DNA of 32,000 bases from Methanothermobacter sp. K4 (GCF_022014235.1 NZ_JAKLTD010000002.1:172284-204283); one strand, 5' to 3'; shown: positions 8,280 to 21,354, numbered from the stretch's first letter. Notes: generated by a model not told the origin, from the letters alone. Translations and numbers: made by a program.

Positions 8280-8594
8280 ATGAGTGATGCTGTAGAAACA
8301 TCAAGGACACTTGAACTTGTGCTTGGAATAATCGGGGCGATCTTCGGTTTGCTGGGAGGCCTTTTTGCCATTGTACTTTCGGTTTTTGGTTCCGAGCTAC
8401 TCTATCTGGGTATCAGTGCGATACTGGCCTCAATTGTGGGGATCATAGGATCAGTATATGTAAGGAACAACCCCAGAAGGGGTGGTGTGATCCTCATAGT
8501 CAGTGCCCTCTGGCTTCTCATAAGCATATCTGCCTATGCAATCCCCGGAACAGTTTTCCTTGGTATTGCAGGTATTCTCGGGCTAATAAGATAG
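8280..8594 (+). CDS. Small polytopic membrane protein (DUF4064-like)
   Basis: RBS GGAGG at 8266..8270. The 104-aa product has three Gly/Ile-rich hydrophobic helices (LVLGIIGAIFGLLGGLFAIVLSVFG..). Confidence 0.6.
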   Translation: MSDAVETSRTLELVLGIIGAIFGLLGGLFAIVLSVFGSELLYLGISAILASIVGIIGSVYVRNNPRRGGVILIVSALWLLISISAYAIPGTVFLGIAGILGLIR

Positions 8595-8614
8595 TCCCCA
8601 TTTTATTTTTTTAA
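8595..8614 (+). terminator. C-run plus oligo-T element (tccccattttatttttttaa) inside the operon; possible attenuating terminator
   Basis: It starts 1 nt after the TAG stop (8592..8594) and shares the exact 18-mer CCCCATTTTATTTTTTTA with 5458..5475. The next gene's RBS (GGAGG 8616..8620) follows immediately. Confidence 0.35.
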
Positions 8615-8621
8615 TGGAGGT

Positions 8622-9323
8622 GTGCATTTGAAAAGGTGCTCAAACTGTGGATCAGAAAACAGGAGAGATGCAATCTTCTGTTCCAGCTGCGGGTTTGAAC
8701 TTAACTCTGGGGGGAGTAACAGCTGGTGGAAAAAGCAGAGCCAGACATCAAAGTTTCTAATAGCTACTGGACTCCCAATGATAATAATACTCTTCATTGC
8801 AGTTGCAGCCACGTTTTTTACCGACCATAGTACTGATTACAGCGATGATTACAGTTATGATACTTTGGATGCTACTGGTGGGTCAGCGTTAACAGAATCA
8901 TACATCAATAAATTCGAGGGCAATGGAATCTCATTCAGTTACCCCGAGACATGGAATATCTACACACCGGAAAATAGAAGCTCAGATACCGTAGTTGATC
9001 TCAAATCTTACGATATGGGTATAAACTCAATCATGACCGTCTATAAAAAACCCTACACCCTTAGTGCTGAAACCCTGAAGGAAATCTGGCTTGAAGTATG
9101 CTATGAAAAAGGGGATAGCGTTGAATACGTGAAGGAAATCGAGGTTGATGGTAACCGGGCATATGCCATCAAATCATCGTATTATTCAGATGGATGCGGA
9201 GACCATGAGTACATTGTATTCACCGATGGCAAATATGAATACTCCCTGCTTTTCACATCTGATGACATCTCACTTATACAGGATGATATAAACACAATTA
9301 TAAGGAGTTTCAGGGTTGAGTGA
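8622..9323 (+). CDS. Zinc-ribbon / TM / PsbP-DUF1795-like extracytoplasmic domain protein
   Basis: N-terminal zinc ribbon CSNCGSEN..CSSCG, one TM (LIATGLPMIIILFIAVAATFF), then 'ISFSYPETWNIY..'. GGAGG-N7 spacing favours TTG 8628 over the tracked GTG 8622. Confidence 0.7.
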   Translation: MHLKRCSNCGSENRRDAIFCSSCGFELNSGGSNSWWKKQSQTSKFLIATGLPMIIILFIAVAATFFTDHSTDYSDDYSYDTLDATGGSALTESYINKFEGNGISFSYPETWNIYTPENRSSDTVVDLKSYDMGINSIMTVYKKPYTLSAETLKEIWLEVCYEKGDSVEYVKEIEVDGNRAYAIKSSYYSDGCGDHEYIVFTDGKYEYSLLFTSDDISLIQDDINTIIRSFRVE

Positions 9324-9879
9324 TATGGATTCCGATAGAATGATTCCGGTTATTGCAGCGGTTATGCTGGCTCTTCTGTTCACAGCCGGTGCACTGCAGC
9401 TACTCAAGGGCGGCAGTGTCCAGGAAGATAAAGTTGAAACGGCAACGGTTGAAAAAACCTCAGATGGATACCGGCTGAACCTTCAGGCTGTCCTTGAACT
9501 TGCAGAGATGGACTCAGGTAACGGGACCGTGAAGTACAGGGGATTCAACTTCACAGGCCCCCAGTTACTCTACATCTTTGCAAGGGGGGTTGTGATGCTG
9601 GAACTCAATGAGACAGGAAAGATCCATGTGGGTGAATACGGTGGCCCTGAGGACCCCTATGGATTCATGGATACCGTTACCCTTACAAGGAGTGAATACA
9701 CCGATATGGCGGAGCGCACATACAACTGGATGGACGCCAATGGCAGAAGCCCCAACCACGTGGGTATCTATGTTGAGGGATCCCCCGATATAACCCCATC
9801 CCTTGCAAGGAAGATCTTCAGACAGGTTCTGGTTGAATACAGGAGGACAGGGACTCTACCAGAAGTGGTGAGTGCCTGA
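9316..9879 (+). CDS. Membrane-anchored pseudomurein-binding-repeat (PMBR) protein
   Basis: N-terminal TM (IPVIAAVMLALLFTAGAL). The segments 'GPQLLYIFARGVVML' and 'LTRSEYTDMAERTYNWMDANGRSPNHVGI..ITPSLARKIFRQVLVEYRRTGTLPEVV' match my recollection of the PMBR pattern (..rlPnyV..). It overlaps the upstream gene by 8 nt. Confidence 0.65.
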   Translation: MSDMDSDRMIPVIAAVMLALLFTAGALQLLKGGSVQEDKVETATVEKTSDGYRLNLQAVLELAEMDSGNGTVKYRGFNFTGPQLLYIFARGVVMLELNETGKIHVGEYGGPEDPYGFMDTVTLTRSEYTDMAERTYNWMDANGRSPNHVGIYVEGSPDITPSLARKIFRQVLVEYRRTGTLPEVVSA

Positions 9880-9990
9880 ATACCTTTTTTCTTTTTATAG
9901 AAATCTAACTTAACTATTAAATTGTTGAATGAGCAAACCTTTATCCTCAAACTATCAAATGGGAAAATAGTGTACTGATGGAAGTTCAGT

Positions 9991-10677
9991 ATGCAGAGAA
10001 AACTGATCATATCACTCATAATCACCGGGGCTTTAATCACGGTTTACCTGCTGAACCCCTCCCTCCACAGCACAGATAACAGGAAGGAAGCTGTGGTTCT
10101 GGGCTCAGATAAGATGGGCACAGTTGAGAAACTTGGACCCTACGGGAACAGAAACTCAGAGGTGAAAATAGCCTACATAACAGGGGTCCACCCCCTTGAG
10201 GGGAACTCCCACAGGGCAGTAATGCAGGCCCTTGAGGAGAACCAGGACAAACTGAGGTACATGTACTTCGTATACCGGGTCAACGTCACATTTAACCCGG
10301 AGGACTACGAAAAGGGGAGAATGGCAGGGCAGCTCCTTGCACGAAGATACGTGGTCTCCGATGTATCCCGGGGTAACTACAGCCTCGCAGTTGATGTGCA
10401 CTCCAACAGGGGCAACTATGGTATGAGGAGGTTCGTTTTCACCCCACTTCCTGATGATAGGAGCAGGTTGATAGCCCTGAAACTTGCATCCAGGATCAGC
10501 TGGCTATCCTACTACCTCCCTGAGTCACAGACAAGCCCCGCCTATGTAACAGAACCCATAATTCAGGGGGGAACACCCGCCATACTCTATGAGAACTACA
10601 TGTACCAGGACTACTCACAAACCCTGCAACATGCCAGGGAGTTCATAATAACCCTGGACTCCACTGACATCCCATAA
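9991..10677 (+). CDS. Secreted or membrane-anchored putative zinc hydrolase with an M14/AstE-like HxxE...H signature
   Basis: N-terminal TM/signal (LIISLIITGALITVYLL). Motifs are 'ITGVHPLEGNSH' (HxxE), 'AVDVHSNRG' (second His) and 'AILYENY' (candidate catalytic Glu). At 228 aa it is shorter than classical M14 enzymes. Confidence 0.5.
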   Translation: MQRKLIISLIITGALITVYLLNPSLHSTDNRKEAVVLGSDKMGTVEKLGPYGNRNSEVKIAYITGVHPLEGNSHRAVMQALEENQDKLRYMYFVYRVNVTFNPEDYEKGRMAGQLLARRYVVSDVSRGNYSLAVDVHSNRGNYGMRRFVFTPLPDDRSRLIALKLASRISWLSYYLPESQTSPAYVTEPIIQGGTPAILYENYMYQDYSQTLQHAREFIITLDSTDIP

Positions 10678-10756
10678 AAACTTAAGAGAGACCCGCCACA
10701 ACCAGCTGCAGCAACCTGGAAAAGCAGTGAAAACCTGAAACAGAACCACCGAAACC

Positions 10757-10875
10757 GAGAAATTAATATACTCTTTTTCACATATATTACAGTGTGGTCC
10801 CGATGATACACTGCAGAGAAATTAATATACTCTTTTTTACATAATATTAAGGTGTGGTTCTGATGATACACTACA
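10757..10875. repeat. Tandem 59/60-bp duplication covering the promoter-like AT box, RBS and first codons of the small zinc-ribbon gene
   Basis: Copy 1 (10757..10815): gagaaattaatatactctttttcacatatattacagtgtggtcccgatgatacactgca. Copy 2 (10816..10875): gagaaattaatatactcttttttacataatattaaggtgtggttctgatgatacactaca. Identity is about 85%. Confidence 0.85.
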
Positions 10876-11045
10876 GAATGGATCAGCCAGAGAGGGTGAG
10901 GTGCAGTGTCTGCGGTGGAGTTGCAGATGAGGTGGAGGAGACATACCCTGAATCAGGGAACTTCATCCTGGTGATCTACAGATGCCGCGACTGTGGCCAT
11001 CTCGAGAAACGACAGTACGGTAAACCCGTGAAGATTATAGATTGA
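10854..11045 (+). CDS. Small zinc-ribbon protein
   Basis: CSVCGG...CRDCGH forms two CxxC pairs. AAGGTG at 10849..10854 with 8-nt spacing favours ATG 10863 (MIHYRMDQPERV..). Confidence 0.6.
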   Translation: MVLMIHYRMDQPERVRCSVCGGVADEVEETYPESGNFILVIYRCRDCGHLEKRQYGKPVKIID

Positions 11046-11054
11046 GGTGATCTT

Positions 11055-11744
11055 GTGGTTGATGTATGCGCTGCGAATGGATATGATGTGATATCAGGAA
11101 AACTGAAGGACCTCCTTGGACTTGAAAAGTCCCCGGTGGCGATAAAACTCGTTCTAAGGGAGGATGACCTTCCTGAGGGCGTTGAAAAAATAGAGAAGCC
11201 TGCAAGGCACTGTGAAATGGTCCAGATGGCCGCTGCAGGGAAATCATTCTATGCGACGGCTGAGGCCCAGGCATGCAAGGGTGGTGCAGATGCCCTTGGA
11301 ATAGATGAGGCACCAGAGAAGGTCAAAACAGGGGAGTTCTACTACAACCTTGGCCGCTTCGCAAGCTTTGCATCAGCCAAGAGAACCTTTGATGAGATAC
11401 CATCCGTTGACCTCAGGTTTTACGCTGCAGTATACGCGCCCCTTGAGGATGCAACCTTTGACCCTGACGTCATAGTGATCATCTGCAACCCTGCCCAGGC
11501 AATGAAGATCTCACAGGCCCTCGTCTACACGCTGGGTGGCCGCGTTGAGGCAGACTTCTCAGGTATACAGTCACTCTGTGCAGACGCAGTTGCAGGTCCC
11601 TACATGAGGAAGAGGGCAAACATAACCATGGGGTGCAGTGGTTCAAGGCAGTACGCCGGTGTGAGGGATGATGAACTCATAGTGGGCCTCAACGGCGAGA
11701 ACATAGGGTGTGTTGTCAACGCCCTTGAGGCCATAAGCCAGTAG
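11055..11744 (+). CDS. DUF169-family protein
   Basis: 229 aa. 'SPVAIKLV', 'ARHCEMVQMAAAGKSFYATAEAQACKGGADALGI' and 'CSGSRQYAG' fit the DUF169 (COG2043) pattern. RBS is GAGGTGA at 11044..11050. Confidence 0.7.
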   Translation: MVDVCAANGYDVISGKLKDLLGLEKSPVAIKLVLREDDLPEGVEKIEKPARHCEMVQMAAAGKSFYATAEAQACKGGADALGIDEAPEKVKTGEFYYNLGRFASFASAKRTFDEIPSVDLRFYAAVYAPLEDATFDPDVIVIICNPAQAMKISQALVYTLGGRVEADFSGIQSLCADAVAGPYMRKRANITMGCSGSRQYAGVRDDELIVGLNGENIGCVVNALEAISQ

Positions 11745-11765
11745 GCTCACCTGATAAAACGTGGG

Positions 11766-11984
11766 GTGATGGTTGTGGTTGAGACAAAGACCTTCAGGAT
11801 CCTTGAGGATGTTGCTGACCTCGAGGAAAAGATAAGGAAATATGAGGGTGAGGCAGACCAGGAGCTTGTTATAAACTGGATCTATGATACCCTTGAGATC
11901 CTCAGGAGTGTGGGTAAGCTCCTTGAGGAGATTGAGGATAGACTGGATCTTCTTGAAGAGGAGACCGAGGAAAAGGAATTCTAG
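11766..11984 (+). CDS. Small acidic coiled-coil protein, hypothetical
   Basis: 72-aa ORF directly after the DUF169 gene. It is Glu/Leu-rich and helical (..LLEEIEDRLDLLEEETEEKEF) and is followed by a T-rich tract. I recognise no family. Confidence 0.45.
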   Translation: MMVVVETKTFRILEDVADLEEKIRKYEGEADQELVINWIYDTLEILRSVGKLLEEIEDRLDLLEEETEEKEF

Positions 11985-12053
11985 ATTGGGGTCTCCACCT
12001 CTTTTCTTTTAGTTGCTGACTCCGGTCTCCAGCTATTCCCCTTGACTCCAAAT

Positions 12054-12137
12054 ATTCCCTTATTCTAATGTAATCACTGCAGTGGTTCAATATCTACCAA
12101 AAAATTCCCTTATTCTAATGTAATCACTGTAGTGGTT
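12054..12137. repeat. 34-bp direct repeat, 50-bp period, duplicating the 3' coding end of the nucleotidyltransferase gene
   Basis: attcccttattctaatgtaatcactgcagtggtt (12054..12087) versus attcccttattctaatgtaatcactgtagtggtt (12104..12137), 33/34 identical. Copy B encodes NHYSDYIRIRE. Copy A lies just past the stop codon. Confidence 0.9.
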
Positions 12138-12737
12138 TACATTCACCAGTTCAATGGGATCCGATGCCTCAACACCGTACAGCCTGATGCCATCATCCAC
12201 CATCAGATGGAGCAGAGGATTTATGTTTCCATCACCCCGGGGGAGGTATCTTTTAAGGAGATCTGAGCTAGCTGCAAGGGGCATGCCTAGGCCCTCAGCG
12301 CTCTCAAGCCATCCGCTCCTCCCCCTTGCAAGTACCGAAACCGTCTCAGGGTCAGCTTGTTCAGTGATCCTCCCCATGGTCTCAGGGGATACCGCCGGCT
12401 GGTCCCCGGCAACGCAGAGTATGACTTCACCTGAAGCAGAAAGAACACCATTGAGGAGTGATGCCGAGAGTGGAACATCAGGTGGATCGTTCCTCACAAT
12501 CTCCACATCCAGACCTGATATCGCCTCCTCAACCTCCCCTGCATGGTGGCCTGTTACGACGATGCACTCATCCACACCCGCCCTGAGGACTGAATCCACT
12601 GTTTTCTCTATTACAGTAACTGAGTTGAGGGGGAGGAGGAGTTTATGGACAGGCTCAAGGCCGAGTTTCAGCATGTCCCTACACATTCGGCTGCCACGCC
12701 CTGCCGCTGTAATAACCGCTGAGATCAACTCCACCAC
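12087..12737 (-). CDS. MobA-like (NTP_transf_3) nucleotidyltransferase, probably a separate gene starting at GTG 12737/12734
   Basis: 'ISAVITAAGRGSRM' is the GxGxR nucleotide-binding N-terminus that normally sits about 5 aa from the start. 'ECIVVTGHHAGEVEEAI' and 'LCVAGDQPAVS' fit the family. The ORF track merges it into a 613-aa ORF (12087..13928). Confidence 0.75.
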   Translation of the reverse strand: MVELISAVITAAGRGSRMCRDMLKLGLEPVHKLLLPLNSVTVIEKTVDSVLRAGVDECIVVTGHHAGEVEEAISGLDVEIVRNDPPDVPLSASLLNGVLSASGEVILCVAGDQPAVSPETMGRITEQADPETVSVLARGRSGWLESAEGLGMPLAASSDLLKRYLPRGDGNINPLLHLMVDDGIRLYGVEASDPIELVNVNHYSDYIRIREFFGRY

Positions 12738-12738
12738 C

Positions 12739-13907
12739 CTATGCCGGTTCAAGCCTGTAGATCCTGGCGTATATTGTTGTACCCGCACCTGACCCTGTCG
12801 TCCACATCTCAATGAGTACCGGTACCTCCCTGTGTTCCTGACCTTTATTCCGGTTGCCGGGTTGAAGCCGAACAGGACCGCACGGAACTCCCAGGTCATG
12901 CCCCTGGGGAGTGGCATCCCTGCATCAGTGACAACGGCCCTGAGGGCCCTTGCAGGTGGGCATGAGCCGTGGGACGCGTATCCGCCGGGGGCCTCCGGGT
13001 CCCTTGATGCCGTGAACCTGACTGTCTCCTTACCTGAACCCTCACTTCCCGGTGGAATCACTGTGCCATTCCATGCCGCGGCGAATGCCCTCGCATTGAA
13101 GGCCCTCTTGTTATCATCGTACTGGGGGTATGAGCCCAGGTAGCTCACTGCAGTTGATACCAGAACCCTCCTGTAGCCTCCAGTGTACACCATGACAGGC
13201 GCCCCTGAGGGGTAGTTCTCCATGTACTCAATAACCTCCCCCCCAAAGAGCTCCTCTATCCTGCCGGGTGGAACAGGGAGTCTGCCGTCGCTGAAGTTGG
13301 ATAGCTGGTAGTCCAGGACTATCTCGTCGCCATCATCGGCCCTTCTGAACCACCTTTTTATCCTGTTAACGGATTTGTACCTGTGGGGGACTGTGCTGTT
13401 ACTTATACTATCTGCAGGGACGAATCTGACCTTCCTCCCGTTCTCAATGATATCTATACCCTTCTCTCTCTTGACACCATAGGTGTAGGGTGTCTTGTAG
13501 GCCCAGAGGAAGACCGGTGGCTCCTGGACCACCAGTTTATCCCCTGAAATCCTCAGTACTCCAGGACCATCGACAGTGGATCTTCCTGATGGGTCTATCC
13601 CTGAGGTCATCCTGGATATCGGGACGTGCACTGCCCCTGTGAGGAGCGCCTGGAGGAGGTTCCCGGGGTCCATGTAGTTGAATTCATCAAGGATGTAGTC
13701 TGGGTGCAGTATCAGGGGGACGCTCCTCACCCGGGACTCATCGATGACATCCTGACCCTTCAGTACCGTGCTTCCAGGCTCAAGGGCGGCTATCTCGCCA
13801 GGGTGCTGGGGTTCAGCACTTCCCTCGATGTATGCGTCTGATGCTGTTATGATGGCTGCAACAATAAGCAGTGCAATGATGTGCTTACCTGATATGATCC
13901 TCTGCAT
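12739..13907 (-). pseudogene. Exported VanW-like protein, apparently interrupted by a 1-nt frameshift at the G-run 12828..12830 (or a sequencing error, or recoding)
   Basis: Signal anchor MQRIISGKHIIALLIVAAIITASDA. 'HGSCPPARALRAVVTDAGMPL' and 'GIKVRNTG' weakly resemble the VanW core (GGGvCQvSsTLYnAal.AGL.., DlkFkNdtg). The -1 frame continues with 'EVPVLIEMWTTGSGAGTTIYARIYRLEPA*', which is VanW-C-terminus-like, and ends at TAG 12739..12741. Confidence 0.5.
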
Positions 13908-16881
13908 ATCTGAATCCCCCCTCACCAATTATGAGTATGGTGTCATATGGTTCTGCAATTTCAAGGGCCCTGCTGACAGCCTCCTCAACCTGCTCGCGGC
14001 TCGCCCCAAGGGTCCCTGCCCCTGCCCTGGTCCTGCTGGATTCTGTATGGACCACCCTCTTACCCAGGATACCTGAGGCTCTCCTTGCAGCATAGGATGC
14101 CGGTATAACGGTGTCGGCGTCCCTCAGGAGCGATGCGATTTCCAGATCACCATCCATTCCACTCTCAGAGGCCACGGTATTTACGACTATAAGCCTTCCA
14201 TCGGTCCCCTTAAGTTCCTGCATCACAGCCCTCACACCGGCCGGGTTGTGGGCGTAGTCAAGTATAACCCGTGGTGAGTCCAACAGTTTCTGGAACCTTC
14301 CCCTCACACCACTGAATGACTCAATACCCTTCACTATATTATCAATATCCACGCCAAGGGACCATGCAGCGGCAGCTGCTGCCAGTGCATTGTAAACATT
14401 GAAGATCCCTGGGGCCTTAAGTTTAACATCCCTCATCTCGGGGCCTATTACCAGTTTGAAGCCAGTGCCTGATGCCTCCAGTGCCATAACCTCTGGCTGG
14501 GGTCTCCGGTAGCCACAGACACACTGGTAGTCCCCCAGGTGCCCCATGGTTCTGCGTGTATATTTGAGGGTGCTGCCACATTTGGGGCATTCCCTGCCCT
14601 CAGGCATGACCGGCGCCGACTCTATACCCTGGATACCATAGAGAACCACTCTCTCCTCCCTCAGTTCCTCTGCGAATGATGCTACGATGGGGTCATCGGC
14701 GTTCAGTACCATGACCTCAGCTGTATCAATGATCTCCCTCTTGCATTCAATGTAATCAGAGAACCGCCTGCCACCTGATAGGTGGTCCCTTGATATGTTG
14801 GTTATGACACCCACTGAGACCCCTGAGAGGAGGGCTGATTGCCTTATCTCACCCCTCCTCCCGAATGTCCCTATCTCAACAACCGCCACGTCCCCCGGGA
14901 GTCTTGCCTGGAGGGCCGGTACCAGTTCCGTGTTGCCCTGTATGCTGAGGTGGTGCTCTGGCACAGTCTTTCCGGCAGCCCTCATTATGGATTTGAGGAT
15001 ACCTGTGGTTGTGGTCTTTCCATTGGTCCCTGTAACCCCCACCACAGGTTTTTCAACAGGGCACATGTTCAGGACGTCCTCAACGCCTATCACATCAGCG
15101 TCAAGTTCCCTGATCAGATCAAGAACCTTCCTGTTATTTTCGAGGGCTGGTGTGATGGCTATGGTGCCTGCGCGCTTGAGGAACTCCATGCTGTGACCCC
15201 CAAGGTCAAGTTCTATTCCCTCCTCCCTGAAGACATCCTCAAGGGGTGTACTCTCCTTCAGATCCGAGACGATCACCCGGTAACCCCTTGCCCGGAGGTT
15301 CCTTGCCATGAGGCTTCCCACATTCCCGCAGCCTCCAAGGACAACTGTGAAGTCCCTCATTGACTCTATGGCCCTCTCAATATCATTCCTCACGTTATCA
15401 TATGCGTTGACAACCCCCGGGCCCAGGTGGAGTACCGTGTCCCCCTTTTCTGCGATTTCAAGGGCCCTCCTTATGCTATCATATACGCTCCCGGTCTTTA
15501 TGGTTTTATCCCTGCCGGCACCCCCTTCAACCTCAGAGGCTGCTTCCATGTCAATCTTACCTGTTGTCTCATTCTTGGCGCTTACAATCAATATATCGGC
15601 TTTCTCACCAAGTATCTGACCTATCCTGTACTTGTCCCTCACTGTGAGGGTGTCGGGGTTGTCAAGGCTTATTATCAGCCTCCCCTTAAATTCAATGCCC
15701 TCAAAGAGTTTCTCCATACTCTCAGGGTTGTGGGCTGCGTCCATGTAAACCGGGACACCATCAACCTCATCTATGAACTCAAATCTACCCTTTATACCCC
15801 TGAATTCCTCTATTGCATTTTTGATATCCTTAATGTCAAATCCAAGTACCAGTGCAACGGTTATGGCTGCAAGGGCGTTCTCCACGTTGAAGAGGCCCGG
15901 TACCCTGAGTTTTATCCTCTCGGTGAGGGGCCCGGCATGGACCAGCCCTTCATGTTCCTCACAGTTTAAAGATCCGCAGGTGCTGCAGAGGGCCGTTGGT
16001 ATCTCTGAGACCTTCAGGGTGAACTCTGATCCCTCAAGGCCCATGAGGTCTATATCTGATGCGCTGACCTGGGGTTCAGCTGAGCCGGTGAAGGTTCTAT
16101 CCATGAACTCAACTTTCCTTTCGTTCCCCAGACCATACACTACACTTTTAACCTCAAGGTCATCCAGGAGCCCCGCGATAACAGGGTCGTCTCCACAGAG
16201 TACCAGAACACCTCCCGGGGCTATGAGGTTCTTTATTGAGAAGTTCCTCTCAATGTATTCGTCGTAGTCCCTGAACTCATCCATGTGGTCGGGTGTGAGG
16301 TTTGTCACGACACCAGCCACTATTTCAAGGCCGTCGGCCATCCTTATGGTCCCGTGTGGGAGTTCAAACACGGCAATGTCCCTGTTTTTCACATCACCGT
16401 TCACCACAAGTTCTACCAGACCCTCAATGACCAGTGAGTCCTGGATTGATGAGAATGACACTGTCCTGTGGCTTGAGGAAAGTATGTGGTCTATCATGTT
16501 GGTGGTTGTTGTCTTCCCGTCTGTACCTGCAACTCCAACCATGGGGATGCCTATGAGCTGGTTGAGGATCCTCCCTATGTCTGAGGTTGTTATGTGGACC
16601 AGATCCTTCTCCACCCTCCCCAGCATCTCACGTACAGGTGCATCGTGGGGGATGTTGGGTGATACGAAGACGGCGTCGGCCCAGAGCATGTCCTCAATCC
16701 TGTGACCCCCAAACCTGAATCTCACACCCTCCTTTTTCATCTCAGCTATTCTCCTCCTGGCCTTGGGGGGCAGTTCATCCAGTTCCCTGAGGTCATTTAC
16801 AAGCACACTGTTTCCAAGGTGTCTCAGCAATCTTGCGGCGGGTCTGCCAGCGTTTCCATCTCCAAGCACAAGCACGTTCAT
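13885..16881 (-). CDS. Tandem double Mur-ligase-family protein (two complete ATP-dependent amide ligase modules; pseudomurein peptide ligase candidates)
   Basis: Module 1 (about 15361..16881): MNVLVLGDGNAG.., P-loop GVAGTDGKTTTT, DAAHNPES. Module 2 (13885..15360): MRDFTVVLGGCGNVG.., P-loop GVTGTNGKTTTT, C4 zinc ribbon CPKCG..CVCG, DYAHNPAG. There is no in-frame stop at the junction ..AIES|MRDF... The tracked GTG 16902 is probably upstream of the real ATG 16881. Confidence 0.9.
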   Translation of the reverse strand: MNVLVLGDGNAGRPAARLLRHLGNSVLVNDLRELDELPPKARRRIAEMKKEGVRFRFGGHRIEDMLWADAVFVSPNIPHDAPVREMLGRVEKDLVHITTSDIGRILNQLIGIPMVGVAGTDGKTTTTNMIDHILSSSHRTVSFSSIQDSLVIEGLVELVVNGDVKNRDIAVFELPHGTIRMADGLEIVAGVVTNLTPDHMDEFRDYDEYIERNFSIKNLIAPGGVLVLCGDDPVIAGLLDDLEVKSVVYGLGNERKVEFMDRTFTGSAEPQVSASDIDLMGLEGSEFTLKVSEIPTALCSTCGSLNCEEHEGLVHAGPLTERIKLRVPGLFNVENALAAITVALVLGFDIKDIKNAIEEFRGIKGRFEFIDEVDGVPVYMDAAHNPESMEKLFEGIEFKGRLIISLDNPDTLTVRDKYRIGQILGEKADILIVSAKNETTGKIDMEAASEVEGGAGRDKTIKTGSVYDSIRRALEIAEKGDTVLHLGPGVVNAYDNVRNDIERAIESMRDFTVVLGGCGNVGSLMARNLRARGYRVIVSDLKESTPLEDVFREEGIELDLGGHSMEFLKRAGTIAITPALENNRKVLDLIRELDADVIGVEDVLNMCPVEKPVVGVTGTNGKTTTTGILKSIMRAAGKTVPEHHLSIQGNTELVPALQARLPGDVAVVEIGTFGRRGEIRQSALLSGVSVGVITNISRDHLSGGRRFSDYIECKREIIDTAEVMVLNADDPIVASFAEELREERVVLYGIQGIESAPVMPEGRECPKCGSTLKYTRRTMGHLGDYQCVCGYRRPQPEVMALEASGTGFKLVIGPEMRDVKLKAPGIFNVYNALAAAAAAWSLGVDIDNIVKGIESFSGVRGRFQKLLDSPRVILDYAHNPAGVRAVMQELKGTDGRLIVVNTVASESGMDGDLEIASLLRDADTVIPASYAARRASGILGKRVVHTESSRTRAGAGTLGASREQVEEAVSRALEIAEPYDTILIIGEGGFRYAEDHIR

Positions 16882-16913
16882 GTTCCTGATCAATTTATGC
16901 ACCCGTAGATCTG

Positions 16914-16921
16914 TTTTATAA
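16914..16921 (-). promoter_or_regulatory. TATA-like box (TTATAAAA on the minus strand) upstream of the double-ligase gene
   Basis: Plus-strand ttttataa at 16914..16921, about 35 nt upstream of ATG 16881. It implies an internal promoter and a short leader. Confidence 0.35.
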
Positions 16922-17049
16922 GTGAAAGGTATGCATTGTCATAAGTAATAAGTTTATGATCAACCGGGAGTTCCCGGATGGTAAAGAAATATGCAGTCCA
17001 TTTATTATTATTGGTTATTCCTATATACCAGTTACGCAGGTGATGGGCT

Positions 17050-18261
17050 TCATTCACAGGAGGATAGTTTCTCGAGTTCTTCCTGGACCCTGATTATCTT
17101 ATCCTGGCCGTTTCCACCCACAAAGACTCTCCTGTATTTCCTGGAAAACTCAAGGACCATGCGGGGGATTTCCTCAGTGTCATCAACTGTTATGACCTCT
17201 GAGTGGATTTCAAGGCCCTTAAGGTATTCCAGTACCATGTCAACCGTGTCCTCAAGGCCAGGGAATATCACAAGGACCCTGGGGGGTGACTCTGCAACCT
17301 CATCCAGGATATGGAGGCGCCACCTCTCTGACCTCCTGGGTGTCCCCATGAACATAACATCGAATTCTGATTCAGAGAGTACCGCCCTCATGGCATGGGG
17401 ATTGTCGGTTTTACCTGCAACGACAGATGCTCCGTTGATGATGAACGACCTTATACGGCCCTTTACAGGCTCAAAACTGGCAAGAGCCTCCTTTATGATA
17501 TCCTCCGGAACCCCAAGATACCTGAGGGCCTCTGATGCCGCCCCTGCGTTCAGTCTGTTGAATCCGCCCTCAACCCTCAGGGGCCCTGTGTACTCGCTGT
17601 AGGTCCTGAGAACCCGGGGGGCCTCCATGAGTTCCCCATCTGACTCGCTGGGGTCGATCACGGCGTTCCTCCCCTTAAGGAATTCTGCCACCGCCCTCCT
17701 GTAATTCTCAATGGATCCATGGAAGTCCATGTGGTCCTCTCCAAGGTTTGTGAGGACCACGAGGTCAATGTCGAAGCACTCTGATGCAAATTCCAGGGTC
17801 ATGTCGCAGACCTCCACCACAAGGTAATCGAATTCCTCCTCAGATGCCCTTAAAAAGAGTTCTGTGTAGCCCCCAAATCCCCCTCCAGCGTTTCCACCAA
17901 GAAGCACCCTTTCACCTGCACATTCAAGTACATGTGCTATCATTGTGGCGGTTGTGGTCTTTCCATTGGTCCCTGTGACCACGATGGTTGTGGGTTTTCT
18001 GTGGCCCTCAAGGACCCTGCAGAGGAGTTTATCCCTGAACCGCTCCATGAGTTCGGTTTTTATCATTGATGGGCTGATTACAACTGCATCTGCAGCCTCT
18101 ATCTTCCCTGTATCATAAAAGCCCAGGTCAAGGTCAACCCCCTCAGGCTTTGAAGGAATTTCACGTCTTATGTCACTTGCATATACACTGTGACCCCTTC
18201 TCTTTAGTGACTCAACTGCCCTTAAACCCTCAGCTCCAAGTCCCAGCACCGCAACCCTCAT
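17050..18261 (-). CDS. Mur-ligase-family protein (MurD-like architecture; pseudomurein peptide ligase candidate)
   Basis: Rossmann-like N-terminus MRVAVLGLGAEGLRAV, P-loop VVTGTNGKTTTA, 'VVLTNLGEDHMDFHGS' and 'GKTDNPHAMRAV'. RBS is GGTGA upstream of ATG 18261. Confidence 0.9.
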   Translation of the reverse strand: MRVAVLGLGAEGLRAVESLKRRGHSVYASDIRREIPSKPEGVDLDLGFYDTGKIEAADAVVISPSMIKTELMERFRDKLLCRVLEGHRKPTTIVVTGTNGKTTTATMIAHVLECAGERVLLGGNAGGGFGGYTELFLRASEEEFDYLVVEVCDMTLEFASECFDIDLVVLTNLGEDHMDFHGSIENYRRAVAEFLKGRNAVIDPSESDGELMEAPRVLRTYSEYTGPLRVEGGFNRLNAGAASEALRYLGVPEDIIKEALASFEPVKGRIRSFIINGASVVAGKTDNPHAMRAVLSESEFDVMFMGTPRRSERWRLHILDEVAESPPRVLVIFPGLEDTVDMVLEYLKGLEIHSEVITVDDTEEIPRMVLEFSRKYRRVFVGGNGQDKIIRVQEELEKLSSCE

Positions 18262-18279
18262 TGGTTCACCGATTAACTG

Positions 18280-18525
18280 TTAATCTTCTCCTGAATCATC
18301 ATCAGAAACCCCATATTCCTCCTTGAGCTGGGCTATTATATCCTCGTTCTTTGACACCTCGGGTCTGAGAGGTTTTTCCTCCTCCTCCCTTGACCTTTTG
18401 CGTTTACCGATGAATACGATCAGCAGGATGACCCCTGCAACTGCAAGGGTCACGGCAACCGCAGTTAATATAACCTCCATGCTCACAGGTGGAGTTTCAG
18501 TAGCTGCCCCGGGTCCCATTGCCAC
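18280..18525 (-). CDS. Small single-pass membrane protein with an acidic C-terminal tail; first gene of the ligase operon
   Basis: TM is VILTAVAVTLAVAGVILLIVFI, followed by KRKRSREEEE and ..DDDSGED. GAGGT is at 18527..18531. ATG 18519 is an alternative to the tracked GTG 18525. Confidence 0.55.
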   Translation of the reverse strand: MAMGPGAATETPPVSMEVILTAVAVTLAVAGVILLIVFIGKRKRSREEEEKPLRPEVSKNEDIIAQLKEEYGVSDDDSGED

Positions 18526-18533
18526 ACCTCAGT

Positions 18534-18543
18534 TTTATATAAA
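18534..18543. promoter_or_regulatory. Palindromic TATA element (TTTATATAAA) in a 41-bp divergent intergenic region
   Basis: It reads TTTATATA on both strands. It lies 24-33 nt from ATG 18567, which suggests a leaderless or short-leader mRNA. A second atatatat block is at 18556..18563. Confidence 0.45.
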
Positions 18544-18566
18544 TAATCATACAATATATATCTTAC

Positions 18567-19130
18567 ATGATAATGAAGGATCCAGGTGGACAGGGGGGTG
18601 CAGAGTACATACTTCTTTTTGCAGCCATCATAATAATCGCAGTTGCAGCCCTCTACATATACAGCTCCTACTTTAAGGTCTCAGGTAATGAGACAGTTGA
18701 CGTGAAGCTCACAATAACCAATATCGGTCCATCAAAGAGTGTCTTCATCTATGAGGCCAATAACACCACCGGTGGCGGCAGCCGGCACATCGTATCAGGG
18801 GACCCTGGAAACTACTTCTTCCTCCTCCAGCCAGGGTCAAGCAGGACCTTCAACCTTGGCCGGATGAGTGCCGGCACCAGCTTCACGGTTGAGGGTGGTG
18901 TTGGTGACCCCCGGAGAGGTGCGGATGACCTCAAGGGTATCGGGCAGCGGGGAAGGTGGACACTGAACATAGGAAACCAGACCTACTCCTGGACCATCAG
19001 CGGCCCCTTTGATTACACCAGAAACCCCACTGGAAGTGTCCTCATGTCATTCTCCATAGCTGGAGGTGGCGGCTCCCCCTTCAGGTTCACCGCAGACCAG
19101 GCCCGGGTGCGGGGTAACGTATCAGGGTAG
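18567..19130 (+). CDS. Class III (type IV pilin-like) signal peptide protein
   Basis: The N-terminus '[32 protein letters not shown]' fits the archaeal prepilin pattern (charged, G/Q, then E, then a long hydrophobic helix). The C-terminal domain is beta-rich. Confidence 0.65.
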
Positions 19131-19139
19131 GTGAGATTT

Positions 19140-19631
19140 ATGGGAAGATATGAGAAGGCAACCTTTGGTGCCGGATGCTTCTGGGGAGTTGAGGATGCAT
19201 TCAGGAGAGTCAGGGGTGTCGTATCCACCCGTGTGGGTTACATGGGTGGCCACGTGGAGAACCCCACCTATGAGGATGTCTGCACCGGTCTTACAGGGCA
19301 CGCTGAGGTTGTTGAGGTCACCTTTGACCCTGCCCTTGTGAGCTACAGGGAACTCCTTGATGTCTTCTGGAGCATCCATGACCCCACAAGCCTCAACAGG
19401 CAGGGGCCGGATGTGGGTGAGCAGTACCGTTCAGTGATATTCTACCATGACGATGGGCAGAGGAGGCTGGCGCTGGAGTCAAGGAGGAAGCTTGAGGAGT
19501 CTGGAAGGTTCAGTGGGAGGATCGTTACAGCCATTGAACCTGCAGGTACCTTCTATGAGGCCGAGGAGTACCACCAGCAGTACCTTGAGAAGAACCGCGA
19601 GGGGAGATGCTACCTCAGGAGACTCCTCTGA
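19140..19631 (+). CDS. msrA: Peptide-methionine (S)-S-oxide reductase
   Basis: '[12 protein letters not shown]', '[29 protein letters not shown]' and '[11 protein letters not shown]' are canonical MsrA motifs. AGGTGA precedes ATG 19140. The tracked GTG 19131 abuts the upstream stop. Confidence 0.95.
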
Positions 19632-19680
19632 GGGTGCCGCCCTGAAGGAGAAGGTGAAAATAGAAAATGGGGTGATGTTC

Positions 19681-21354
19681 ATGAAGGAGGTCATGGATGA
19701 TGTTGCACTGGTCCTCTGCGGTGAGGCAGGGCAGGGGATACAGACAGTTGAGGCACTCCTTATAAGGGCCTTCAGGGCCACCGGCTACCATATATTCTCC
19801 TCCAAGGAGTACATGTCCCGTGTGCGTGGTGGTGAAAATTCGACGCTGATAAGGGTTTCATCAGCGCCTGTGAGGGCCTTTGTGGACCGTATCGATGTCC
19901 TCTTTGCCCTGAGCCCGGGGGCGGTGGACCACCTGAGGGAGAGAATCAACGGGACACTGATTATTGCAGATGAGAGCTTCGGTGAGGATGATGCCGTGGG
20001 CCTGCCCATACTTGAGGAGGCTGAGAAGCTGGGGGGACGTATATTCGCCAATGTTGTGGCTGCAGGTGCCGCAGCCCGTCTCTTCAGGGTCGGAGAGGAT
20101 GTCTTCGATAATGCCGTGAGGTCACTCTTTGAGCGCAAGGGACCTGAGATCCTCAATTCAGACCTCAGGGCTGGTAGGAAGGGTTATGAACTGGGCGAAA
20201 AACTCAGGGAACATCTGAGGGTCTCTGTTGAGCCTGACCCATCTGTCAGGGGTCATGTAATCCTTAACGGCACTGAGGCCGTGGGTTTAGGGTGCATAGC
20301 AGGGGGTTGCAGGTTCATGTCATCCTACCCCATGACCCCCTCAAGTCCCCTCCAGATATTCATTGCAGAGAATGCCGATGAATTTGACATGGTATTCGAG
20401 CAGGCCGAGGATGAGATTGCAGCCATAAACATGTGCCTTGGAGCATCATATGCAGGTGCCCGGTCACTTGTTGCAACCTCGGGGAGTGGTTTTGCCCTTA
20501 TGGAGGAGGCCGTTGGCCTTGCAGGGATGATAGAGACGCCTGTTGTGATATACATTGGTCAAAGGCCGGGGCCTGCGGTTGGGCTTCCCACGAGAACTGC
20601 CCAGGAGGACCTGAACCTGGCCCTCTACTCGGGACCAGGGGAGTTTGCAAGGGCCATATTCGCCCCGGGAAAGCTGGAGGATGCTCCTGAGATAACGGCA
20701 CATGCATTCAACCTTGCAGACAGGTACCAGGTACCCGTCTTCATACTATCAGACCAGTACCTGGCGGACCTCTACTACAACCTCCCTGAACCTGAAATCG
20801 GTGTGGAGGAGGAGTATCATATTAGCGGGACTGATGCCGGGTACAGGAGGTTCAGGTTCACAGAGGATGGTATCTCACCCCGCGGGGTTCCGGGTTACGG
20901 TGAGGGACTTGTGCGTGTTGATTCAGATGAACATGACGAGGACGGCTTCATAACAGAGGACCTCAATATAAGAAGCAGGATGGTTGAGAAGCGGAACCTG
21001 CGCCTTGAAATGCTCAGGGATGATGCACTGGCACCTGAGGTGTGGGGCGACGACTCCAGTGCAGTGATATGCTGGGGTTCCACCTACTGGCCTGTGAGGG
21101 AGGCCATCGGGTCATCTGATGCCGAGGTCACCATGGTGCACTTCAGTCAGGTCTATCCCCTGGCACCTGATACCCGTGAGCTTCTGGAGTCATTTGAGGT
21201 GACAGCCACCATTGAGAACAACTACAGGGGACAGTTCGCTGATCTGCTTAAACTTGAGGCCGGCTTTGAGGTTGACCATCGACTCAACAAGTACAATGGT
21301 ATGCCCTTCAGTGTTGAGGAGATAAGGAAATTCATAGGGGAGGTTTTTGCATGA
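19681..21354 (+). CDS. 2-oxoacid:ferredoxin oxidoreductase, fused gamma/alpha subunit
   Basis: Gamma domain '[13 protein letters not shown]'. Alpha domain '[28 protein letters not shown]' and '[25 protein letters not shown]'. The start is set at M79 of the tracked ORF (GGGGTGA RBS, 5-nt spacing). The tracked 19447 start overlaps msrA in another frame. Confidence 0.9.

Follow-up and report, generated by a model that had tools for sequence, protein, structure and literature searches.

A 613-codon open reading frame of Methanothermobacter sp. K4 is most probably pmurA and pmurB joined by a one-base frameshift

Introduction

In the pseudomurein methanogens, an Mfer335-type gene and a MobA-like gene are invariably present as two separate open reading frames (ORFs) (PMC10117817, PMC11915815). 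Their products are called PmurA and PmurB. PmurB, a MobA-like nucleoside triphosphate (NTP) transferase, has been assayed by Cha et al. 2026 (PMC12996149). PmurA, the one universally conserved protein of the pseudomurein peptide cluster still to be characterised, is a candidate wall cross-linker, and its remote similarity to VanW domains hints at an enzyme that cross-links or trims. VanW domains act as L,D-transpeptidases and use a catalytic Cys (PMC11348318). Here, we analyse a stretch of 32,000 nucleotides (nt) from the genome assembly of Methanothermobacter sp. K4 (GCF_022014235.1 NZ_JAKLTD010000002.1:172284-204283), hereafter the window, in which pmurA and pmurB appear as one fused ORF of 613 codons. 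Positions are counted from the first nt of the window. In the nomenclature of Subedi et al. 2021 (PMC10117817), the locus is pseudomurein gene cluster 1, which Lupo et al. 2025 (PMC11915815) call cluster B.

An earlier note on this DNA, made from the sequence alone, had read the ORF as a frameshift chimera in which a membrane-anchored protein is followed by a MobA-like nucleotidyltransferase of cytoplasmic type. This reading is borne out: the two parts correspond to two different NCBIfam equivalogs, which are encoded separately in each of the 29 relatives that gave a match and throughout the homologue clusters found. We hold it to be about 95% probable that the 613-codon ORF consists of pmurA and pmurB joined by one absent C, and that it does not specify a natural bifunctional protein. 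Nothing about it is novel in kind: two known genes are involved and an ordinary one-base frameshift, unique to this assembly.

Results

Two Genes in One Open Reading Frame

The fused ORF and its parts are the following:

12087..13928, minus strand: fused ORF, 613 codons from TTG 13928 or 606 codons from ATG 13907, with the TGA stop at 12087
12822..13907, minus strand: 5′ part of pmurA in the original frame (Met1-Tyr362), matched by NF053640
12821..12822, minus strand: shift site CC, which is CCC in five aligned relatives of the same genus (Tyr362 TAC, Pro363 CCN)
12739..12820, minus strand: 3′ tail of pmurA, (P)VLIEMWTTGSGAGTTIYARIYRLEPA, with the stop TAG 12741..12739, displaced to the other frame
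12738..12821, minus strand: out-of-frame linker, RYSLRCGRQGQVRVQQYTPGSTGLNRHR, without a homologue
12087..12728, minus strand: pmurB (Mfer334 family, MobA-like NTP transferase), matched by NF053639 and Pfam NTP_transf_3

The positions that had been reported for the ORF and for the GGG, TAG and GTG codons around the junction are all found in the sequence. The GGG codon for Gly360 (12830..12828, minus strand) closes the segment ..GIKVRNTG of the fused ORF. Past this codon, the fused frame reads RYRYSLRCGRQGQVRVQQYTPGSTGLNRHR and then runs, without meeting a stop, into VVELISAVITAAGRGSRM, while the other frame, followed from 12828, gives EVPVLIEMWTTGSGAGTTIYARIYRLEPA before ending at TAG 12741..12739. 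One base past this TAG, the transferase frame offers the potential start codons GTG 12737 and GTG 12734, as well as TTG 12728. The two readings differ accordingly in their junction peptides, ..NTGRYPVLIEMWTTGSGAGTTIYAR in the PmurA frame (intact or recoded) versus ..NTGRYRYSLR in the fused frame.

Against the NCBIfam model NF053640 (Mfer335 family protein PmurA), the fused ORF scores 483.8 bits (cut-off 400) over its residues 20-374; residues 1-366 alone yield 481.2 bits. The match covers only positions 1-357 of the 378 of the model. The 29-residue piece read in the other frame matches, all by itself, model positions 352-378 (E 2.7e-8). Full coverage of NF053640 is not reached in one reading frame: positions 1-357/358 are specified in the main frame and 337/352-378 in the other. 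The C-terminal part of the fused ORF (12087..12737) matches NF053639 (PmurB) over the complete model (positions 1-209 of 209; fused-ORF residues 403-603) with 266.7 bits at a cut-off of 260, and Pfam NTP_transf_3 with E 5e-23.

The displaced tail is identical in 27 of 27 residues to the tails of the M. marburgensis and M. wolfeii proteins (P0004, P0052 and others). The pmurA part is 92-95% identical to the 389-amino-acid (aa) PmurA of M. marburgensis, M. wolfeii and others; an intact PmurA from the same species was not found, the best match being 95% identical. The 90% identity cluster of the nearest PmurA includes proteins of 389 aa, all ending in ..NTGRYPVLIEMWTTGSGAGTTIYARIYRLEPA, from M. 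marburgensis, M. wolfeii and several Methanothermobacter sp. It also includes the 606-aa product of the window, through which two PmurB sequences have been drawn into this PmurA cluster.

Neither NCBIfam model, PmurA or PmurB, matches the linker (residues 375-402 of the fused ORF), in agreement with the earlier note, in which the RYRYSLRCGRQ stretch was said to resemble no family. The openness of this linker is by itself not remarkable: simple arithmetic gives a chance of (61/64)^31, i.e., ~0.23, that 31 codons are free of stops.

The Missing Base Is a C, and the Sequence beyond It Shows No Decay

We aligned the locus, using MAFFT, with the corresponding loci of five genomes of the same genus (L009, L012, L008, L010 and L005; 91, 90 and ~75% DNA identity). 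The relatives have ..GGTACCC(G/T)GT.. (Tyr-Pro; ..GGTACCCGGTAC.. in four of the five), whereas the window has ..GGTACCGGTAC... In terms of codons, the window presents TAC CG at 12824..12820 versus TAC CCN in the five relatives (TAC CCG in four). This C is the sole gap within the coding sequences of pmurA and pmurB relative to the two closest genomes (L009 and L012). Since the alignment gap is located in the C-run, the true junction is NTGRY|PVLIEMW rather than NTG|EVPVLIEMW. The loss of 1 nt proposed in the earlier note thus stands, but not its placement in the G-run (12828-12830): the base is missing from the C-run at 12821-12822, two codons downstream.

How the two genes come to be read as one is shown by the arrangement in relatives of the L009 type, in which the first pmurB GTG follows one base after the pmurA TAG. 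Since pmurB is offset by one base, a 1-nt deletion moves the upstream pmurA into the pmurB frame. The shifted reading then bypasses the TAG, traverses 28-31 stop-free nonsense codons and enters pmurB. The predicted product is a PmurA minus its last 27 residues (two core β-strands, including three invariant residues), extended with the nonsense linker and PmurB.

Over the 84 nt that lead from the shift to the TAG, L009 and L012 each differ from the window at five positions. All five differences are synonymous when read in the PmurA frame and non-synonymous when read in the fused one, and this pattern recurs over the stretch in the three more distant genomes. The occurrence of synonymous changes only, together with the 27/27 identity of the tail, implies that the tail has evolved as PmurA coding sequence until essentially now. 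Judged by this substitution pattern, the linker is not an evolved linker. The pristine state of the tail means that the shift is either very recent or an artefact; in the latter case, the event would be absent from the organism itself.

The length of the G-run at the gene junction differs among species without consequence. In L012 and L008, there is one G fewer after the pmurA TAG, and the pmurB GTG follows directly after the stop, in the pmurA frame.

The Fusion Occurs in No Relative

We searched 30 related genomes across the order, as well as the window's genome, for PmurA in six frames. PmurA was found in 29 of the 30 relatives, in each as one open frame (357-416 aa), and none of these 29 shows a split or a fusion. 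In 28 of them, the match spans nearly the whole model (start at position 1-4, end at 376-378) in frames of 393-416 aa; the exception, G007, has a 357-aa frame that matches model positions 32-378. The window's genome alone is split, its 613-aa frame matching model positions 1-358 and a 61-aa frame matching 337-378. No second copy of pmurA was found in it by the six-frame search. Conservation in related genomes of the uninterrupted fusion, including the RYRYSLRCGRQ segment, had been named in the earlier note as the outcome that would speak against a chimera; no relative keeps either.

Searches beyond these genomes gave the same picture. There is no fusion among the 48 homologue clusters of the fused query, in which the PmurA-type matches have lengths of 344-412 aa and span no more than 65% of the query. 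A family-profile search of 1.84 billion representatives yielded 67 proteins, the longest of 420 aa, and no fusion; nor is there one among the PmurB matches listed (120 of 371 clusters, E <= 1e-40), which measure 210-234 aa. In independent assemblies, the window's own genome left out, exact look-ups retrieved neither the fused product nor PmurB with any of three starts, nor any of three partial products that had been guessed. The junction, with either CC or CCC, had 0 matches in a metagenome scan.

Frameshifts in the Remainder of the Assembly

To place the missing C in context, we took a census of frameshifts over 726 kb of the closest genome, G001, versus the window's genome, based on 892 ORFs whose products are at least 85% identical at the amino-acid level. 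Of the bona fide genes intact in G001, only two are disrupted here: pmurA and a homologue of a surface protein, 1480 aa in length. Among bona fide genes, the 726 kb yielded no 1-nt frameshift besides the one in pmurA, and the 1-nt alignment gaps between the two genomes are symmetric (169 vs. 174). Most of the other apparent frame changes relative to G001 were dismissed, as they concern intergenic insertions or deletions picked up through antisense ORFs, or repeat-rich surface proteins that are intact here. The surface-protein homologue lies outside the window and is broken by a 32-nt tandem duplication (G000:C4:619068-619176).

Two Logan contigs of sequencing run SRR17831477 (L170 and L171) match the window in 7053 of 7054 nt (12901-19954) and in 3560 of 3560 nt (8516-12075), respectively. 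Their ends, at 12901 and 12075, flank pmurB and the shift site, leaving the site outside both. The run contains a near-identical strain, with one mismatch in 10.6 kb, a synonymous one at window position 17587.

The pmurB Half Retains Its Own Start

The pmurB start is likely TTG 12728, with GTG 12737 and GTG 12734 as alternatives: this TTG aligns with the unambiguous pmurB ATG of L005, and the MISAV.. starts of P0061 and P0063 agree with it. The stretch GGTGGTGGAG precedes the start and includes a Shine-Dalgarno-like GGTGG. As the start codons and the upstream GGTGG are retained, free PmurB may still be translated from its own start. The length of about 210-230 aa typical for a stand-alone PmurB is not found here, as there is no upstream in-frame stop.

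At the 3′ end of pmurB, the window carries a tandem duplication of ~51 nt (12053-12137, minus strand), in which AACCACT[A/G]CAGTGATTACATTAGAATAAGGGAAT.. is present in two copies, compared with one in the two closest genomes. It alters the C-terminus of PmurB, which reads ..IREFFGRY* versus ..REYFGVKGE* or ..RDYFGFKGE* in relatives.

The Tail Lost from PmurA Is Part of a Conserved Domain

We modelled the structure of PmurA with AlphaFold2, using an intact homologue of 94% identity and an alignment of 35 sequences (predicted local distance difference test score, pLDDT, 90.7; predicted template modelling score 0.82). In this model, the tail that is lost upon the frameshift forms the last two β-strands, 364-371 and 378-388, with pLDDT 96-98. 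In the family alignment, M368, W369 and T370 within this tail are invariant, and P363, I366, G372, G374, I379 and P388 nearly so. Given the loss of conserved terminal strands with invariant residues, the frame-shifted PmurA is likely misfolded or inactive.

At the other end of the protein, the model of the homologue includes a helix that bears on the topology:

13818..13889, minus strand: PmurA N-terminal hydrophobic helix, residues 7-30, a putative membrane anchor

The basic residues R3, K7 and H8 stand before this helix. Subedi et al. 2021 (PMC10117817) predicted an N-terminal membrane insertion domain for PmurA, while Lupo et al. 2025 (PMC11915815) reported 0 transmembrane segments and no signal peptide. 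A location of the PmurA body outside the cell, as argued in the earlier note, is plausible, with an orientation predicted from the positive-inside rule. Cha et al. 2026 (PMC12996149) considered PMurA a possible cytoplasmic kinase; they detected ATP hydrolysis only and no Glu-phosphate.

A Remote Relation to VanW Domains

The earlier note had called the pmurA part VanW-like. Pfam finds no VanW match in the 366-residue PmurA part of the window. Two intact homologues score 12.1 and 13.4 bits with Pfam VanW (PF04294; E 0.14 and 0.05), the threshold being 27 bits, and VanW appears below the threshold in 17 of 35 members of the PmurA family (best E 0.0019), as the only family that recurs. A comparison of PmurA with VanW profiles by hhalign, for which seven canonical domains from four bacterial genomes served as the VanW reference set, gave 82% probability (E 1.1e-5) over 135 columns. 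One residue stands out in this alignment:

12960..12962, minus strand: TGC codon of Cys316, invariant in the PmurA family within the motif SHGxCPPARALR, and aligned with the Cys of VanW GGGxCQ

D303, H313 and C316 are invariant columns of PmurA, and hhalign places Cys316 on the invariant Cys of the seven VanW domains. H121 and D133, the invariant VanW residues of the proposed Cys/His/Asp triad, align with columns that lack conservation in PmurA; in the window, the Asp column has Asn. In the VanW-His column, the window has a CGT codon (12884-12886, minus strand) for Arg (..TWEFRAV..), where all close relatives have His.

Other searches did not reach VanW. With the PmurA model (pLDDT 90.7), Foldseek returned no significant match in the PDB or BFVD; as a null result has also been reported for VanW itself, this does not speak for or against the link. 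With PmurA as the query, a sequence-profile search of the PDB found nothing, a search of the 1.84 billion representatives with the PmurA profile did not reach canonical VanW proteins, and canonical VanW was not found in 151 genomes of the phylum. At the level of sequence profiles, the relation between PmurA and VanW is one of remote homology and not of family membership. The term "VanW-like" can, therefore, be kept for the hhalign match (82%) with its aligned Cys, though not in the sense of a Pfam assignment, as the score remains below the threshold.

The Gene Cluster around the Fused Frame

Upstream of pmurA, two further genes of the cluster lie in the window:

13885..16902, minus strand: pMurD1-pMurC double Mur ligase, NF053645 (pMurC) 651.9 bits and NF053646 (pMurD1) 479.5 bits
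17050..18261, minus strand: pMurD2, the first gene of the cluster, NF053647 553.4 bits over positions 1-405 of 405

The gene order on the minus strand is thus pMurD2, pMurD1-pMurC, pmurA and pmurB, with pmurA in its expected slot between the Mur ligase gene and the MobA-like gene. The pMurD1-pMurC ORF overlaps the pmurA start by 23 nt. Of the eight genomes searched within the genus, seven have an open pMurD1-pMurC frame of ~1000 aa (987-1013), as does G011. In G007, in which the PmurA match is also shorter, pMurD1-pMurC is split into frames of 752 and 312 aa.

Elsewhere in the window's genome, a 402-aa integrase (G000:C4:97295-98503) falls in the 90% cluster of the integrase of Methanobacterium phage psiM2, which suggests, from sequence likeness, a psiM2/psiM100-like prophage.

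Discussion

Origin of the Frameshift

Some observations weigh against the interpretation of the fused ORF as pmurA and pmurB joined by one absent C, or against one of the two origins that it allows. NCBI lists the 606-aa product, which is also on record in UniRef, as a normal protein; the listing exists because the frame is open, nothing more, and the NCBI annotation is probably a mis-annotation. The assembly is not error-prone, which weakens an explanation by error without removing it. The weighing of mutation against error is based on comparison of the assembly and of contigs. For a real and recent loss-of-function or hypomorphic mutation, by which the PmurA C-terminus is disrupted and fused to PmurB while PmurB is made from an internal start, we would give even odds. 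The assembly appears clean, and the absence of a litter of homopolymer errors puts more weight on a real mutation; only pmurA and the surface-protein gene are disrupted in the 726 kb compared. The lesion in the latter, the 32-nt duplication, is a mutation type and not a typical base-calling error, and the 51-nt tandem duplication at the 3′ end of pmurB is present as well. A CCC homopolymer is a weak error context for short reads, and the presence of contigs of 0.6-0.8 kb suggests a short-read assembly. On the other hand, the gene concerned is intact in 29 of 30 relatives and invariably present in pseudomurein methanogens (PMC10117817), it exists here in a single copy, the residues lost include invariant ones, and the tail is without decay. 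These circumstances lead to the other origin, which comes close to an even chance: a sequencing or assembly artefact, or a minority variant that was taken as the consensus, in an organism that has CCC and two normal genes. The tail of this order-wide conserved gene is perfectly preserved (27/27 aa, synonymous changes only), and odd PmurA calls recur in public assemblies (cluster entries P0058 and P0055): KEPCO 2 (Methanothermobacter sp.) has a frameshift-truncated PmurA of 182 aa, ..NSTVPTGTNQLTE, and one M. marburgensis record a 330-aa PmurA with a late start. Pseudomurein genes of M. thermautotrophicus Delta H were likewise annotated as pseudogenes, and were rescued (Lupo et al. 2025, PMC11915815). 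The breaks in the SRR17831477 contigs, along with the lack on record of any window-identical stand-alone PmurB or guessed partial fusion, are compatible with heterogeneity at the site. Against an artefact speaks that the one in pmurA is the sole 1-nt coding frameshift found in the 726 kb.

Two further explanations would make the arrangement functional. Programmed -1 ribosomal frameshifting or transcriptional slippage, an option raised in the earlier note, would restore PmurA, and the only point for it is that re-reading of one base at Tyr362 would indeed bring back the conserved tail. There is, however, no X XXY YYZ slippery heptamer in ACA GGG AGG TAC CGG TAC TCA; to regain the frame, tRNA-Tyr would need to shift its pairing from UAC to GUA; the 111 nt that surround and follow the site have no more stable a fold than shuffled sequences (minimum free energy of -28.9 vs. 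a mean of -27.9 kcal/mol, z = -0.32); and the shift is seen in 0 of 29 relatives, hence there is no conserved recoding site. Recoding is, therefore, very unlikely. Least probable of all is a selected, functional PmurA-PmurB fusion enzyme of the "Rosetta-stone" kind. In its favour, pmurA and pmurB always lie side by side within a single pathway cluster (PMC10117817, PMC11915815), and a natural fusion of neighbours, pMurD1-pMurC, exists across most of the genus. The pmurA-pmurB fusion, by contrast, is unique to this assembly and does not recur with both domains complete in independent genomes; it arises by destroying conserved strands of PmurA and not by loss of a stop codon; and its linker evolves as PmurA-frame sequence. 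If the PmurA body does face outward, PmurB, which uses uridine triphosphate, would also be misplaced in such an enzyme.

Consequences

Should the deletion be real, the strain could be a natural PmurA hypomorph or knock-out, a tentative view for which we see somewhat less than an even chance: it would live with the last two strands of the VanW-like domain of PmurA lost and PmurB attached. Were this true, then either PmurA or its C-terminus would be dispensable, or the wall of this strain would be altered. The 606-aa record almost certainly represents two genes and can mislead inference on pseudomurein synthesis from domain architecture or from Rosetta-stone fusions. The analysis provides a corrected shift site and a flag on the public 606-aa annotation, and points to SRR17831477 as the run that can settle the matter of mutation versus error.

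Comparison with Known Systems

The pmurA half is like the PmurA/Mfer335 family (NF053640; OG0001147 of Lupo et al. 2025; Mfer335 of Subedi et al. 2021) in that its N-terminal 362 residues score above the cut-off, its gene occupies the matching slot between pMurC and pmurB, and its displaced tail is identical to that of Methanothermobacter PmurA. It differs in that the relatives are proteins of ~357-416 aa that end in ..RLEPA, whereas here the frame continues into pmurB and model positions 358-378 sit in another frame. The pmurB half resembles the PmurB/Mfer334 family (NF053639) in its full model coverage with a score above the cut-off, in its retained start codons and in the G-x-G-x-R nucleotide-binding N-terminus (AAGRGSRM); it differs in that an upstream in-frame stop is missing, so that the 606-aa annotation includes it as the C-terminal third.

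With the VanW-domain L,D-transpeptidases (PF04294; C. difficile Ldt4/Ldt5, PMC11348318), the C-terminal ~150 residues of PmurA can be aligned. The R..N..A...NG.(I/L).PG block is in register, as is the NT..YP(V/I).I strand, which is precisely the one that the frameshift displaces. In contrast to these enzymes, PmurA scores far below the Pfam gathering threshold and has no peptidoglycan-binding or G5 domains, and the VanW His and Asp columns are not conserved, while PmurA has D303 and H313 of its own.

The closest parallel to the fused frame as such is the natural pMurD1-pMurC fusion (type 1A cluster; Subedi et al. 2021), in which, similarly, adjacent genes of the same cluster make up one long ORF. 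The latter fusion is kept in most of the genus with both domains complete, whereas the pmurA-pmurB fusion occurs in this assembly only and has a truncated PmurA domain.

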